Below are positions 10,941 through 55,289 of a stretch of 64,000 nucleotides of DNA, piece by piece (the stretch's first letter is position 1; every line of letters starts with the position of its first letter). The DNA is taken from the NCBI GenBank assembly GCA_052035195.1, contig JBPOHU010000001.1, forward strand, positions 104,031 through 168,030, read 5' to 3'. The stretch is from Candidatus Nomurabacteria bacterium (GTDB lineage: Bacteria > Patescibacteriota > Minisyncoccia > Phycocordibacterales > UBA9973). Position numbers and translations under genes: made by a program. The notes below the pieces were generated by a model. It was given only the letters and a program-made list of their open reading frames with translations. It did no database searches and was not told the origin of the DNA.

Positions 10941-12110
10941 TTATTTCTTATTTCTTCGCAAGAATGCTGGTATTGCGCCCCAGTCTTCTTCAGTACCTTC
11001 ACCTTCAACTATTTCAGTATCTTCTGTACTTTTAATTTCTGGCTTTTGAACCATAGGATTTATTACTTCTTTTTTCTCTACTTCAGCAGGTCGTGAATTG
11101 TTGAAAAGTTGTTGTGCGGTTTGTCCAGCAAAAAGATTACTCTTTTTTGTGCCTTCTGTTGGGAAGCCCGTAGCTATAACAGTGATTTTCATTTCACCTT
11201 TTTTGATACGCTCATCAAATATGGTTCCGATAATCACACGAGCGTCTTTATCGATACTCTCTGTGATAACCTTAGCGGCTTCTTGGAATTCAGCCATAGT
11301 TAGGTCGTCATTTGTAGAGATGGCAAAGAGAACACCTTTTGCTCCATTGATTGAAATATCAAGAAGGGGAGAGTTGATAGCCTGAACAGCTGCTTTTTCT
11401 GCTCGATCTTCTCCAGAAGCAAATCCAACACCCATAAGAGCTGTTCCTGCATCTGTAAGAACGCTTTTCATATCAGCAAAGTCTACGTTGATGATACCAG
11501 GAGAAGAAATAAGTTCTGAAATTCCTTCAACTGCTTGTCTTAGAACTTCATCACACTTTGCAAAAGCATCTTTGAAAGTAGTGTCCTTACCAGCTATTGC
11601 TAGAAGTCTATCGTTTGGAATAACGATTATGGCGTCAACTTCTTGCTCAAGCTCTTCAATACCTTTGTCAGCAATGCGCATGCGTTGGTTGCCTTCAAAG
11701 AAGAAAGGCTTTGTAACAACAGCAACAGTTAGGATACCTTGTTCTTTTGCAGCACGAGCTACAACTGGAGCTCCTCCAGTACCAGTACCACCCCCCATAC
11801 CACAGGCGATAAATACCATATCAGCACCTTTAACGGCGTCTTGAACTTCTGCTTTTGTTTCTTCAGCAGCTCTCATACCAACCTCTGGATTCATACCAGC
11901 ACCAAGACCCTTGGTAAGGTTTTTACCTAGGTGAATTTTTTTCTCTGCAGCACTTTTGTGCAAGTCTTGCACATCAGTATTCATTACAATAAATTCAACA
12001 CTTTTAACCTTTGCATTTATCATGTGATTAATAGCGTTGCAACCAGAACCACCCACACCAATGACTTTGATGCGCGCAGCTGTTTCAATTTCAGGATTTA
12101 TTTTGGCCAT
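10941..12110 (-). CDS. ftsZ: cell division GTPase FtsZ
   Basis: IKVIGVGGSGCNAINHM, GMGGGTGTGGAPVVA tubulin signature; start MAKINPE at 12110. Confidence 0.9.
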   Translation of the reverse strand: MAKINPEIETAARIKVIGVGGSGCNAINHMINAKVKSVEFIVMNTDVQDLHKSAAEKKIHLGKNLTKGLGAGMNPEVGMRAAEETKAEVQDAVKGADMVFIACGMGGGTGTGGAPVVARAAKEQGILTVAVVTKPFFFEGNQRMRIADKGIEELEQEVDAIIVIPNDRLLAIAGKDTTFKDAFAKCDEVLRQAVEGISELISSPGIINVDFADMKSVLTDAGTALMGVGFASGEDRAEKAAVQAINSPLLDISINGAKGVLFAISTNDDLTMAEFQEAAKVITESIDKDARVIIGTIFDERIKKGEMKITVIATGFPTEGTKKSNLFAGQTAQQLFNNSRPAEVEKKEVINPMVQKPEIKSTEDTEIVEGEGTEEDWGAIPAFLRRNKK

Positions 12111-12211
12111 AACATTCTCCTTTTTTCTTCCACTTATTACTATACCGAACATAGTACCAGAGTGTAGAAAAAGGGCAATGGATATTGACTAAAAAGTACT
12201 TTACTGTTGTA

Positions 12212-13375
12212 TTAAGGCATTAATTGCTTAAAGAAGTTTTTGATGACAGCAACGAATCCTTCACCTGCATTATTTAATGATTGTTTATTTTGTTTTCCTC
12301 CTATTTCAGAATTTGTAGAAGCTAAAGCATAGGCTACAAGAAGCTTTTGATCTTTTATTATTCCTTTTGTACTTGGAATATCAAAGTGTCCAATACGAAC
12401 AGGTATCTTAAGCATTGTTTTAGCAACACTTTCTATGTTATGAAGATTTGACCCACCTCCAATAATAATAGCTCCGGCTGGAAGTAATCCACTGCGACCC
12501 ATTTTTTTCAAATATTTGTCTACTAGTTCAAAAATATCAGAAAGTCGAGCTTCTACTATCTCATCTATTTTCTTTTTAGGTACTGATTGGAAGTTAACAA
12601 CACCTGTTTTGATACTTTCTGCTTCTTCTGGGGTGATACGGAGGCCGAGTGCTAAGTCTTTTGTAATATTTAAAGATCCAATATCAAAAACATGTAAAGA
12701 GATAAGAGTATTGTTTTCAAAAACTGATACAGAAACTGTTTCAGCTCCAATATCTATAAGCGCACAACCAAAATTTCTTTGTAAATCTGTCAGTAGTAGA
12801 GACTGAGCAGATAGAGGAGTTGCAGTAAAACCTAAAACTTTTATTCCGGCATCTCCTATAACACCAAGCAAATCATCTAGATGTTGTTGGAAACATGTTA
12901 TAAACAAAGTTCTCACTTCTAATTTCAAACCTTCTATTCCTTCTGGTCTAACAGGGTATTCTTTGCCATCTATTTTGAAAGAAACAGGGTAAGCGTGAAG
13001 CATTACTTTATTTTTAAGTTCAAGAGAAACCTCTGCATCGCTTATAGCTTTCTCTATATCTAGTTTTGAGATTATTCCATCTGCTCTTGAAACAATAGAA
13101 GACCCTACAGAGTATTGGGCGTCGAGGCCTATACCACCAATAGCAATATTTGCTTGTTTGATTTTGATTCCACTATTAACCTCTGCATCACGAATTGCCT
13201 TTTTAAGACTAGTTAAAACTGCATCTCGATTTACTACATAACCATGTCTAACTCCTTGAGTTTCAGAAATACCAAAGCCGAGTATCGCTGGGCTAGCATC
13301 AACGCGTTGTTCACATACAACAACTCGTGTAGTAGAAGTACCTATATCAATACCAACAGTTATAATTTGTTTCAT
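12212..13375 (-). CDS. ftsA: cell division protein FtsA
   Basis: MKQIITVGIDIGTSTTRVVV actin-fold N-terminus; sits immediately upstream of ftsZ. Confidence 0.85.
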   Translation of the reverse strand: MKQIITVGIDIGTSTTRVVVCEQRVDASPAILGFGISETQGVRHGYVVNRDAVLTSLKKAIRDAEVNSGIKIKQANIAIGGIGLDAQYSVGSSIVSRADGIISKLDIEKAISDAEVSLELKNKVMLHAYPVSFKIDGKEYPVRPEGIEGLKLEVRTLFITCFQQHLDDLLGVIGDAGIKVLGFTATPLSAQSLLLTDLQRNFGCALIDIGAETVSVSVFENNTLISLHVFDIGSLNITKDLALGLRITPEEAESIKTGVVNFQSVPKKKIDEIVEARLSDIFELVDKYLKKMGRSGLLPAGAIIIGGGSNLHNIESVAKTMLKIPVRIGHFDIPSTKGIIKDQKLLVAYALASTNSEIGGKQNKQSLNNAGEGFVAVIKNFFKQLMP

Positions 13376-26759: not shown

Positions 26760-28508
26760 ATGAAATCTTTTGAGGTTCGTAAGCGATTTTTAGACTTTTT
26801 TGAGAAACGTGGACATGCGATTATACCTAGTGCTTCTTTGGTGCCCAAAAATGACCCTTCTGTGCTTTTTAATACTGCTGGTATGCAACCACTCGTACCA
26901 TATCTTATGGGTGAAAAACACCCACTAGGAAGTCGTTTAGCAAGTTGTCAAAAGTGTGTTCGTACTGGGGATATAGAAGATATTGGGGACGCTAGACACC
27001 TTAGTTTTTTTGAAATGCTTGGTAACTGGTCTTTGGGAGATTATTTCAAAGAAGATGCTATTGCTTGGAGTTTTGAATTTTTAACTTCAAAAGAAGAGGG
27101 TTTAGGTCTTGATCCAAATCGTTTATATGTAACTGTCTTTGAAGGAGACGAGGATGCACCAAGAGACTTGGAAGCAGTAGAAATATGGAAAAAGTTTATT
27201 CCAGAGCATCGCATTTATTTCCTACCAAAGAAAAACAACTGGTGGAGCCCAGGAGACAATGGTCCGTGTGGACCTGATACTGAGATGTTCTATGATGTCA
27301 CTGAAAAAGGTCTAGGAGATATGACTCATGAAGAGTATGTAGATGCTGATGATAGGGGAGCTATTGTTGAAATCTGGAACGACGTATTTATGGAATACGA
27401 GAAGAAAGATGGCAAAGTAATAGGGAAGCTCAATCAAAAAAACGTTGATACAGGGAGCGGTCTTGAGCGCATAACAATGATTGTTCAAGGTAAAACAAAT
27501 GTTTACGAAACAGATGTTTTTTCTTCAGCAATAGAATTCATTGACCTTAATACCAAAGGAATACCAGATGAGCGTAGCTCTCGTATTATTGCTGATCATG
27601 TACGCAGCGCAACAATGCTTATCGCAGACGGAGTTTTCCCTTCAAACAAAGACCAAGGCTATGTACTTAGAAGATTTATTCGCAGAGCAGTAGTCCAAGC
27701 AAAAAATATCGGTTTTTCTTATGAGCTTCTTGGTGTATTACAAAGTGGCTTCATGGCAAAATACGAAGACATATATGAAGAACTTAAAGAAAATATAGAA
27801 GGACAAAAAGAAGTATTCAACAAAGAGGTAGAGAAATTTATCAAAACACTTGAAGCAGGATTAAAAGAGTTTGAGAAGGGAACAGATCCATTCATACTAG
27901 CTACTACTTATGGTTTTCCTATTGAAATTACAGAAGAAATAGCAAAAGAAAAAGGTATTTCTATAGACAGAGAAGACTTTGATACAAAAATGAAGGCTCA
28001 CCAAGATGCGTCTCGTGCAGGAGCAGAACAAAAGTTCAAAGGAGGTCTCGCAAACACAAGCGAGCAAACTACCAAGCTCCATACTGCACACCACCTACTT
28101 CTTAAGGCTCTTCAAGAAGTCGTAAATCCTGATATCCACCAAAAAGGTTCAAATATTACAGAAGAACGCCTGCGTATAGATTTTAACTTTGATAGAAAGC
28201 TGACAGAAGAAGAAAAGACTGCTGTTGAAGAGCGGGTTAACATATGGATTGCGTACGATCTTAATGTTGTGAAGCGTGATATGCCTAAAGAAGAAGCCGA
28301 AAAACTTGGTGCTGAAATGGAATTTGGAGTTAAATATCCTGATATTGTTTCTGTTTATTTTATTGAAGACAAAGAAGGTAATCATGTCTCTAAAGAATTT
28401 TGTGGTGGACCACACGTAGAGCACACAGGATTACTAGGAGTTTTCAAAATCCAAAAGGAAGAAGCCTCCTCTGCTGGAGTACGCCGTATAAAAGCGATCT
28501 TACAATAA
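26760..28508 (+). CDS. alaS: alanyl-tRNA synthetase, compact form (no C-Ala domain)
   Basis: MKSFEVRKRFLDFFEKRGH...FNTAGMQPL...FFEMLGNWSLGDYFK class II AlaRS core, plus editing-domain motifs HTAHHLL and GGPHVEHTG. 582 aa versus ~870 typical. Confidence 0.8.
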   Translation: MKSFEVRKRFLDFFEKRGHAIIPSASLVPKNDPSVLFNTAGMQPLVPYLMGEKHPLGSRLASCQKCVRTGDIEDIGDARHLSFFEMLGNWSLGDYFKEDAIAWSFEFLTSKEEGLGLDPNRLYVTVFEGDEDAPRDLEAVEIWKKFIPEHRIYFLPKKNNWWSPGDNGPCGPDTEMFYDVTEKGLGDMTHEEYVDADDRGAIVEIWNDVFMEYEKKDGKVIGKLNQKNVDTGSGLERITMIVQGKTNVYETDVFSSAIEFIDLNTKGIPDERSSRIIADHVRSATMLIADGVFPSNKDQGYVLRRFIRRAVVQAKNIGFSYELLGVLQSGFMAKYEDIYEELKENIEGQKEVFNKEVEKFIKTLEAGLKEFEKGTDPFILATTYGFPIEITEEIAKEKGISIDREDFDTKMKAHQDASRAGAEQKFKGGLANTSEQTTKLHTAHHLLLKALQEVVNPDIHQKGSNITEERLRIDFNFDRKLTEEEKTAVEERVNIWIAYDLNVVKRDMPKEEAEKLGAEMEFGVKYPDIVSVYFIEDKEGNHVSKEFCGGPHVEHTGLLGVFKIQKEEASSAGVRRIKAILQ

Positions 28509-53253: not shown

Positions 53254-53314
53254 AGGTAAATCATAACATAGGGCTTGCCCTGAGCTTGCCGAAGGGTTTT
53301 CCCCACCATTTTTC

Positions 53315-53343
53315 TTGCATGTGAACGATTGTTCACATATAAT
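53315..53343 (+). promoter_or_regulatory. SOS-regulated promoter: TTGCAT-N17-TATAAT with a Cheo-type LexA box GAAC-GATT-GTTC in the spacer
   Basis: TTGCATGTGAACGATTGTTCACATATAAT; box 53323-53334 lies within the perfect palindrome ATGTGAAC-gatt-GTTCACAT. Confidence 0.7.
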
Positions 53344-53418
53344 AAAAACATACAAGTTCATCCCGCTACGGCGGGAAGTAATAAATAAAAACCCACGCCA
53401 TTAGCGGGGCAAGCATAT

Positions 53419-53613
53419 ATGACAACTGCACAATATCAAAAAAGTTTACAAAGAGAACTAGCAAAGCTAAACCAACGCATCGATATGATGATCATAAAAG
53501 GTCAATCATACGTAGCGGAATCAAAGAAGCACAAGATGTTGCTCCGACAACTTCGAAGTCTACAAGGTCAGAGCTTCTTTAGTAGATTTATGACAAATTC
53601 AATGAGTTTCTAA
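53419..53613 (+). CDS. small hypothetical protein (64 aa, MTT...), first gene of the lexA operon
   Basis: ORF ~75 nt downstream of the SOS promoter. Confidence 0.35.
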   Translation: MTTAQYQKSLQRELAKLNQRIDMMIIKGQSYVAESKKHKMLLRQLRSLQGQSFFSRFMTNSMSF

Positions 53614-53614
53614 T

Positions 53615-53803
53615 ATGACTACAAGCCCACAGTTTCGCCAAGCCATAGCCAGCAATCTAGAGAGACTGAACTCTCTGACTTTCAGATCAGAACCCCATGC
53701 TACACTTCATATGTACCTACAAGACTATGCCAAGAGAAACTATCTCCGCAAACAAAAGTCTAACAATATTTTGACTTCTTTCTTTTTGCAAAAAGTCTTC
53801 TAA
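53615..53803 (+). CDS. small hypothetical protein (62 aa, MTT...), possible paralogue of the preceding ORF
   Basis: Starts 2 nt after the previous stop; similar N-terminal pattern MTTxxQ(F/Y)...L.(K/R)LN. Confidence 0.35.
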   Translation: MTTSPQFRQAIASNLERLNSLTFRSEPHATLHMYLQDYAKRNYLRKQKSNNILTSFFLQKVF

Positions 53804-53808
53804 TACAT

Positions 53809-54375
53809 ATGACCAGCGACCCCACCGAACAAATCAAAAGTTTCTATCATCAACAAAAACGCATGCCTAGTTATAGCGAGATGATGGAACTTTTCGGTTT
53901 CAAATCTAAAAATGCGGTTTATCGACTAGTAAGAAAAATGCTAGACGCTGGAATAGTTGCCCAAGACCATATAGGCCGTCTGCTTCCTACATCACTTTTT
54001 AGTGACATACCAGTAGGCGGACTTGTGAAAGCAGGACTACCGTCATCAGTCGATGCTCAAAGTGAATCTATCAATCTAAACGATTTACTTATTAGTAAAA
54101 AGAGTGAGACTTATATTTTAGAAGTAGACGGGGACTCAATGATAGAAGCTCACATAGAGCCAGGAGACATGGTAATAGTAGAGAAGAGAAATACTGCCAA
54201 AGAAGGCGAAATAGTCATCGCGATGGTAGACGGCGAGCACACTATGAAATACTTGCGCAAAGACAAATCTGGCAAAATGTATCTAGAACCAGCCAACAAA
54301 GCTTATAAAAATATTTACCCTACACAATCATTAGAAATCACCGGAGTAGTAAAAGGGGTAGTGCGTAAATACTAA
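53809..54375 (+). CDS. lexA: LexA repressor (S24 peptidase)
   Basis: N-terminal wHTH (MMELFGFKSKNAVYRLVRKM) and C-terminal GDSMIEAHIEPGDMVIVEK...K Ser/Lys dyad region. Confidence 0.8.
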   Translation: MTSDPTEQIKSFYHQQKRMPSYSEMMELFGFKSKNAVYRLVRKMLDAGIVAQDHIGRLLPTSLFSDIPVGGLVKAGLPSSVDAQSESINLNDLLISKKSETYILEVDGDSMIEAHIEPGDMVIVEKRNTAKEGEIVIAMVDGEHTMKYLRKDKSGKMYLEPANKAYKNIYPTQSLEITGVVKGVVRKY

Positions 54376-55289
54376 GGAGTACCGTATAATTCTTCAAGTA
54401 TATAATCACGCTCTTCTTGCTTCTTTTGGATATCCTCTAAAAGAGGTTTTATTTTTTCTTGCAAAGATTCTAAACTAATTTTTGTAACGTTAGGATCTTC
54501 TGCCAATTTCTTCCATGGAGCAGTTTGCCCAAAAATATAATCTCCGAAAATAAGCACTGGTGTACCCTGAGCTAGAAGTTTCTCTTCTTTTGATAATACC
54601 CAAGTATTTACCCAATCATAAAACCATAATGCATCTTTGGCAGAGAGTCTGACACAAGAGTGCGACGCAGGGTAACCAGGCAAATCATATTCATGAATAC
54701 CAATACCGTCTTGATTAGCAATATTCACATTCCATTTCATTATCCAACCATCATCCACAGTACTTGTGACTTCTTTACCTTTCCAGTTGGCATAAAAGAG
54801 CTTACTAGTGGTAGGGGTAGATTTCTTGCCAGAACTAAGTCCTCCAAAGCGTACAAGCTCTCCATATTCATAAGCGCCAAACTCTTGTTCTTTTTGTGCT
54901 ATGAGCATCATCTTTGGAACAGTAGAAAGCTCTGGAATATTCTCTGGGAAAGAAGAGAGAGCAAAAAGGTCATCATAACGATCTGGATAAACAATAACCA
55001 TGCCTTTTTGGAAATGCTTTTGATCTATTCTATTTAGCGACAAAACTACATCTAGATTTGCAAAACCTACCGCATCAGAGACTTCTTTGCCGGGCTTATC
55101 TGATACAAGAGTAATACTTTTATAGCTTATAGGCTCCTTTTTAGGTTCTTCTATTGGAATCACAGGTGGAGGATTATCTTGTGACGGGATGACAGAAATA
55201 GAAGGCTTATTTGTATATTTATTATAAAAAAATACCCCAAAACCAACGAGTACTAAAATAACAAAAGATGTTTTGAGTGCTGTTTTCAT
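54372..55289 (-). CDS. L,D-transpeptidase (YkuD family)
   Basis: GIGIHEYDLPGYPASHSCVRLSAKDALWFYDWV catalytic His/Cys motif; N-terminal signal anchor. Confidence 0.7.
   Translation of the reverse strand: MKTALKTSFVILVLVGFGVFFYNKYTNKPSISVIPSQDNPPPVIPIEEPKKEPISYKSITLVSDKPGKEVSDAVGFANLDVVLSLNRIDQKHFQKGMVIVYPDRYDDLFALSSFPENIPELSTVPKMMLIAQKEQEFGAYEYGELVRFGGLSSGKKSTPTTSKLFYANWKGKEVTSTVDDGWIMKWNVNIANQDGIGIHEYDLPGYPASHSCVRLSAKDALWFYDWVNTWVLSKEEKLLAQGTPVLIFGDYIFGQTAPWKKLAEDPNVTKISLESLQEKIKPLLEDIQKKQEERDYILEELYGTP

Follow-up and report, generated by a model that had tools for sequence, protein, structure and literature searches.

What do two very small genes do when they are placed directly ahead of the gene for the SOS repressor LexA, apparently on one transcript with it? 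The question is raised by positions 53315 to 54375 of a 64,000-nucleotide stretch of contig JBPOHU010000001.1 from a Candidatus Nomurabacteria bacterium (assembly GCA_052035195.1). This whole stretch is called the window below; its G+C content is about 36%. The two small open reading frames (ORFs) are called ORF1 and ORF2. The Patescibacteria, whose genomes are tiny, form a very large and for the most part uncultivated bacterial branch, in which cell-cycle arrest after DNA damage is a gap in current knowledge; a 2017 study of their SOS network by Sanchez-Osuna, Barbe and Erill (Environ Microbiol) is cited in PMC8565304 and PMC7739468. An earlier note, made from the letters of the window, had drawn attention to the locus, and the present analysis compares it with 18 genome loci fetched through their LexA proteins and with ten more obtained by exact-protein look-ups. 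The box, the promoter and lexA make up an ordinary autoregulated SOS locus, and LexA autoregulation is already known. What is new is a large family of lexA-locked small proteins without a name, a second member of the operon that is absent from annotation, and a conserved DnaA-like box upstream of the promoter.

The lexA operon and its control region

ORF1 (53419-53613, 64 amino acids), ORF2 (53615-53803, 62 amino acids) and lexA (53809-54375, 188 amino acids) follow one another on the plus strand. The gaps between them are 1 nt and 5 nt, each one nucleotide shorter than the 2 and 6 nt first reported. No terminator-like site was found on the plus strand between the three ORFs, and a terminator-like hairpin with a T-run is present 44 nt past lexA (54419-54457, plus strand). 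This hairpin lies inside the 3' end of a convergent ORF on the minus strand (54372-55289), which was assigned by Pfam to the YkuD family of L,D-transpeptidases and overlaps the lexA stop by 4 nt. The proposal that the three genes form one operon agrees with this layout, and the three ORFs, packed like one operon, are taken as the putative SOS master operon of this Patescibacteria (Paceibacteria) genome.

The spacing is conserved as well as tight. In 13/13 loci the gap from ORF1 to ORF2 is exactly 1 nt, and the distance from the last small ORF to lexA ranges from -8 to +17 nt, being mostly 0-7. A G-rich patch resembling a Shine-Dalgarno sequence precedes ORF1 in most loci of the window's clade. 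ORF2 and lexA have no Shine-Dalgarno sequence of their own, the gaps in front of them being too short for one, so that LexA and the small ORFs are probably coupled in translation.

The identity of the third gene was established by alignment over nearly its full length. The 188-amino-acid product aligns over residues 10-187 to the LexA structures 3k2z, 1jhh and 7b5g, and has an N-terminal DNA-binding domain followed by an S24 self-cleaving domain. Peptidase_S24 was matched in Pfam at 1e-26 (residues 69-181), the Pfam match to LexA_DNA_bind was weak (E 0.04), and the lexA equivalog TIGR00498 scored 108.3 bits over residues 9-187 against a curated cut-off of 110.95. The motif VKAGLPS, with its Ala-Gly cleavage site, aligns with the UmuD cleavage site VQCGFPS, and the serine of GDSM and the lysine of TMKYLRK, which form the catalytic dyad, align with GDSM and TVKKL of UmuD. 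By these alignments both requirements of self-cleavage, the site itself and the Ser/Lys dyad, are present in the protein. Relatives at E <= 1e-10 number 1716 and come from metagenome-assembled Patescibacteria (labelled Paceibacterota, Nomurabacteria or Patescibacteria group); several public sources label the close relatives LexA.

The promoter consists of a -35 hexamer, TTGCAT (53315-53320, plus strand), and a -10 hexamer, TATAAT (53338-53343, plus strand), placed 17 nt past it. The description of this region as a consensus promoter fits the -10 hexamer and the 17-nt spacer, but TTGCAT matches TTGACA at only 3/6 positions and was not called by the promoter scan. Among all related loci the same position reads TTGACA, TTGACT or TTGCAT, and the -10 hexamer of relatives reads TATAAT, TATACT or TATGAT. 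The spacer is filled by the LexA operator, a perfect 8+4+8 palindrome, ATGTGAAC-gatt-GTTCACAT (53319-53338, plus strand), found just as the earlier note had described it, with the GAAC-N4-GTTC core GAACGATTGTTC at 53323-53334.

The extended form GTGAAC-N4-GTTCAC has a single occurrence in the 64 kb window, and 0/100 shuffles contained a match. It is found between the -35 and -10 hexamers in 25 related loci. The operator of locus L018 is a one-mismatch version at the same promoter position, and that of L026, from a more distant lineage, is GTGTAC-GGAT-GTACAC, in the same place (about 1363-1378), with TTATTCACA abutting the -35 hexamer. The arrangement of promoter and operator is therefore one that recurs in 27 related Patescibacteria (Paceibacteria) loci, and the position of the operator in the lexA promoter stays fixed over LexA divergence down to about 51% identity. 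A fixed position of this kind fits autorepression, for which the box had been said to be placed. Because a single LexA operator occupies the spacer of a sigma-70-type promoter, bound LexA would block RNA polymerase. That LexA represses its own operon, and that damage-induced self-cleavage would derepress it, is the regulatory part of our account and is well supported.

The Gram-positive Cheo-type SOS box is CGAAC-N4-GTTCG and stands at autoregulated lexA (dinR) promoters of Bacillus subtilis and its relatives. The window's operator had been assigned to this type. The assignment is right for the palindromic GAAC-N4-GTTC core of CGAACRNRYGTTYC, which is present in the window and in 25 related loci, but not for its C...G flanks: the operator has T...A at those positions, and GTGAAC...GTTCAC is the form throughout the lineage. 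As in Bacillus, the operator overlaps the promoter of its own lexA and the repressor has an Ala-Gly site and a Ser/Lys dyad. Unlike in Bacillus, the flanks are T/G...A/C, the one operator lies in the spacer of the promoter, one or two small ORFs come ahead of lexA as the final cistron, and the related lineage of L026 uses GTAC half-sites instead of GAAC.

Further boxes were sought as marks of an SOS regulon. The only other GAAC-N4-GTTC in the window is at 28026, within an ORF resembling alaS, and one such match is the chance expectation. With up to 3 mismatches allowed, no further intergenic LexA box was found in the window, the matches all being intragenic and at chance frequency. There was likewise no second LexA box in roughly 170 kb of related sequence, none in 37 kb from relatives around the genes at both ends of the window, and no recA in the window or in the related sequences examined.

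A second conserved element lies just outside the promoter. The sequence TTTTCCCCA (53297-53305, plus strand), 9 nt upstream of the -35 hexamer, matches the DnaA-box consensus TTATCCACA at 7/9 positions. In related loci the exact consensus is found 9-12 nt upstream of the -35 hexamer in 16 cases (for example L005:2518, L012:2651 and L022:2413) and a one-mismatch form in nine more; the two-mismatch form occurs in the window and in two near-identical contigs. When 136 kb of related loci were scanned for TT[AT]TCCACA, 21/23 occurrences were at lexA-operon promoters, and sequence conservation between loci begins exactly at this 9-mer. Elsewhere in the window one-mismatch matches to the DnaA box occur at the chance rate (17 found, 18 expected). 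The position and conservation of the element suggest an input of DnaA, or of replication status, into the lexA operon, and such a box, if real, would bring SOS control and replication status together at one promoter.

Directly 5' of this element, at 53270-53296, is the stretch GCCCTGAGCTTGCCGAAGGG, present in the window and in L013 and absent from other close relatives; it can fold into a short GC stem, with T residues after the stem.

The two small proteins

ORF1 belongs to a large lexA-linked family. A profile search gave 865 matching proteins, and an exhaustive search gave 348 clusters at 50% identity, nearly all of them standalone proteins of 60-70 amino acids and all labelled hypothetical. 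As far as the sources name their hosts, the family appears to be restricted to Patescibacteria. Neither ORF1 nor ORF2 matched any Pfam or NCBIfam family (E up to 0.1) or any PHROG, the hits being sub-threshold noise, and the same was true of a sequence-profile search of the PDB. Searches with the ORF1 model against PDB and viral structures returned generic helical hairpins, none at E <= 0.001.

Several features mark ORF1 as a real protein. Thirteen residues are invariant across 66 diverse members, among them the polar surface residues E13, N18, D22, E34, H38 and R46. The pairwise ratio of nonsynonymous to synonymous substitution (dN/dS) is about 0.10, with synonymous sites near saturation, as expected of a gene under purifying selection. 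The AlphaFold2 model, built with the family alignment, is an alpha-hairpin with helices at residues 3-27 and 32-60 and a mean predicted local distance difference test (pLDDT) score of 86.5; the last 14 residues are modelled with low confidence, and the C-terminal tail is aromatic. The isoelectric point (pI) is 10.7, and the highest 19-residue Kyte-Doolittle mean is 0.11, with no membrane-spanning segment. By this model ORF1 is a soluble, basic alpha-hairpin with a disordered aromatic tail.

The linkage to lexA is close to complete. An ORF1 homologue lies directly upstream of lexA in 17/18 genome loci, and the family adjoins lexA in every context examined. These include L026 (1339-3130), where the order is reversed and lexA is followed by the small gene, two NUDIX genes and rarA. 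L018 has LexA and its operator and no small ORF. ORF1 evolves much faster than its neighbour, with 33-40% identity where LexA has 52-62% (L012-L017). The co-transcription of small genes with the repressor was described as unusual, and so it is by comparison with model organisms, but in this lineage it is the rule.

A prophage repressor module was considered as an explanation of the linkage and rejected, since the housekeeping genes around the cassette differ from genome to genome and no phage genes lie close to it. A scan of viral contigs for relatives of ORF1 found none.

ORF2 has a narrower distribution and was found only in the window's clade (LexA identity >= 71%). There it is open, with conserved length and start, in 13/13 loci (the relatives being L001-L011 and L013), and a C-terminal tail like FFLQKVF is kept in all 13. 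Its dN/dS is about 0.22. The small ORFs' conservation, proposed earlier as a check on their reality, was thus borne out for both: like ORF1, ORF2 is by its substitution pattern under purifying selection, and it is a conserved gene that is absent from annotation. When 11 ORF2 sequences were looked up in a collection of 15 billion proteins, 0/11 were present, and ORF2 is not called in the gene-called relatives L019 and L029; gene finders appear to miss it systematically. ORF2 is therefore a case of how conserved small genes are systematically overlooked by gene callers. The protein has a pI of 10.4 and a highest 19-residue Kyte-Doolittle mean of -0.21, again with no membrane-spanning segment, and its single-sequence model has two helices at moderate confidence (pLDDT 72.8).

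The two small proteins had been described as paralogues on the strength of their similar N-termini. The profiles of the two families do match across the first 18 residues (hhalign score 20.9, P 9e-4), a score reached by 0/200 column shuffles, whose maximum was 17.8. The likeness does not go beyond residue 18, however, and pairwise BLASTP of ORF1 against ORF2 gave no alignment. ORF2 is a fast-evolving extra cistron of the clade, and its descent from ORF1 is plausible from the profiles and not proven.

Possible roles of the small proteins

We lean, tentatively, towards a reading of the small proteins as SOS effectors, whose action would be a pause in the cell cycle. DNA damage would lead to RecA-stimulated cleavage of LexA and derepression of the operon promoter; the small proteins would rise along with new LexA, pause division or replication during repair, and drop once LexA re-accumulates. 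The aromatic C-terminal tail may limit the length of this pulse as a signal for degradation or membrane targeting. This reading is drawn by analogy, because a small lineage-specific gene adjacent to lexA is an SOS checkpoint inhibitor elsewhere: the small lexA-adjacent genes of Bacillus, Listeria, Staphylococcus, Mycobacterium and Corynebacterium encode SOS division inhibitors that share no homology among themselves (PMC6851548). ORF1 and ORF2 resemble YneA (Bacillus, Listeria), SosA (Staphylococcus), ChiZ/Rv2719c (Mycobacterium) and DivS (Corynebacterium) in being small, lineage-specific and adjacent to lexA under a LexA box, and in having a C-terminal tail that could control stability. The usual target of such inhibitors exists here, since FtsA (12212-13375, minus strand) and FtsZ (10941-12152, minus strand) are encoded in the window.

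There are also differences from these proteins. ORF1 and ORF2 lie upstream of lexA on one transcript and not divergent from it, and they are predicted to be soluble basic alpha-hairpins without a transmembrane segment, a LysM domain or any other Pfam domain. The gene for SulA lies downstream of lexA in Pseudomonas; ORF1 and ORF2 showed no homology to the SulA family in Pfam or NCBIfam (E up to 0.1).

The 46-amino-acid protein Sda of Bacillus subtilis offers a different kind of comparison. Sda is an alpha-hairpin that acts in a replication checkpoint. DnaA boxes mediate the activation of its promoter, its C-terminal tail serves as a degron for ClpXP, and its targets are sporulation kinases, which are not expected in this organism. 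The ORF1 product resembles Sda in being a small alpha-hairpin with an unstructured C-terminal tail, and the two promoters are alike in having a DnaA box or an element like one. ORF1 differs from Sda in having no sequence similarity to it (no match to Pfam Sda), and the promoter here is also LexA-controlled.

Several points weigh against a role as SOS effectors. Searches of Pfam, NCBIfam, PHROG and the PDB linked the small proteins to no characterised protein. Known Gram-positive SOS division inhibitors are membrane-anchored (PMC6051672), and ORF1 and ORF2 have no membrane-spanning segment. A position upstream of lexA on the same transcript implies basal expression together with LexA, which sits uneasily with a growth inhibitor, except one that is unstable or is active only above a threshold. 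The LexA locus of L018 has the operator and no small ORF. The DnaA-like element, at 7/9, is degenerate in this window. Finally, the lexA promoter is the one site from which the regulon, and hence the SOS identity of the box, is read.

The main rival explanation, possible if doubtful, treats the small proteins as accessories of the SOS switch: by binding LexA (or RecA), they would modulate how LexA holds its operator or cleaves itself. It has a precedent in gp7 of phage GIL01, a small protein that binds the LexA of Bacillus, strengthens its hold on DNA and prevents its RecA-mediated cleavage (PMC4551915). Like gp7, the ORF1 product is a very small protein that may be functionally tied to LexA, and a protein of the gp7 kind would explain both the linkage and the coupling. 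Basal co-expression would be no problem for such a factor, and tight translational coupling would supply it in fixed proportion to LexA. Of the models considered, this one best explains why the linkage is unbroken and the genes are coupled. The linkage does not vary as LexA diverges to about 50% identity, and it outlasts the switch of order in L026; stop and start codons abut or nearly abut those of lexA (0-7 nt in most loci), as is typical of genes whose products form a complex. The small proteins combine solubility and a basic charge with a polar surface that is conserved, and LexA is near neutral. Against these points, gp7 is phage-encoded, whereas the ORF1 family is chromosomal, has no sequence similarity to gp7 or to any phage family, and is absent from viral collections and contigs. 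L018, with LexA and operator and no small gene, indicates that LexA works alone in some lineages, and the rate at which ORF1 evolves, much faster than LexA, is also unfavourable to a partner protein.

Another damage-related or housekeeping role, such as binding of nucleic acid or ribosomes or chaperoning of a repair factor, with the lexA promoter shared for regulatory convenience, is in our judgement unlikely. Very basic small helical proteins (pI above 10) often bind nucleic acids, the NUDIX hydrolases and RarA that neighbour the small gene in one lineage suggest a broader repair cluster, and beyond position no feature ties the small proteins to the divisome or to LexA. However, no DNA- or RNA-binding family was matched, and strict adjacency to lexA in all contexts examined exceeds what co-regulation needs.

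That the small ORFs are non-functional as proteins, serving as upstream ORFs or leader peptides that set lexA translation, or in the case of ORF2 being a chance frame, is very improbable: although lexA and ORF2 depend on coupling for want of their own Shine-Dalgarno sequences, and ORF2 is missing from public protein predictions and uncalled in L019 and L029, the dN/dS values of 0.10 and 0.22 with synonymous sites near saturation, the 13 invariant residues and confident fold of ORF1, and the conserved length, start and FFLQKVF tail of ORF2 in 13/13 loci all speak against it.

Returning to the SOS effectors, a broader proposal can be made, which we regard as rather unlikely to hold in full. The ORF1 family, with ORF2 as a clade offshoot, would be a class of SOS proteins of the Candidate Phyla Radiation that has so far gone unrecognised. 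Its members would be cytoplasmic alpha-hairpins, translationally coupled to LexA and controlled by LexA and DnaA together, acting either as a new kind of non-membrane checkpoint of damage and replication or as the first chromosomal accessory factor of LexA. A lexA-locked family of several hundred members is an obvious candidate for the missing checkpoint, or for a built-in modulator of LexA, and its proteins are short enough to be synthesised and tested in vitro or in surrogate hosts.

The leader and minor observations

Transcription probably starts at about 53350, about 7 nt past the -10 hexamer, which gives a 5' leader of about 69 nt (53350-53418, plus strand) in place of the ~75 nt estimated before. 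The leader does fold, as had been proposed (minimum free energy -22.6 kcal/mol, z -3.2), with a hairpin CCCGC-UACG-GCGGG at 53362-53375 and a second GC hairpin at 53392-53408. The further suggestion that alternative hairpins form a regulatory device did not survive comparison. The GC-rich segment that bears both hairpins, one of them with the UACG tetraloop, is an insertion of about 35 extra nt common to the window (53357-53414) and to the equivalent segment of L007 only. In very close relatives, for example L019, the leader is shorter and bears no relation to this one, and across loci the leaders range from 35 to 108 nt and are unrelated in sequence. An Rfam search of the leader matched no family. 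A riboswitch or attenuator as a conserved mechanism was rejected on these grounds, the segment being a lineage-specific insertion without an Rfam match. On the minus strand the second hairpin and its T-run form a terminator-like site (53408..53392), and the segment may be a small element inserted here, or it may insulate the region from antisense read-through.

The ORF that holds the window's other GAAC-N4-GTTC, a chance match, lies at 26760-28508 and resembles alanyl-tRNA synthetase. Bacterial alanyl-tRNA synthetases are about 870 amino acids long, and this ORF encodes only 582.

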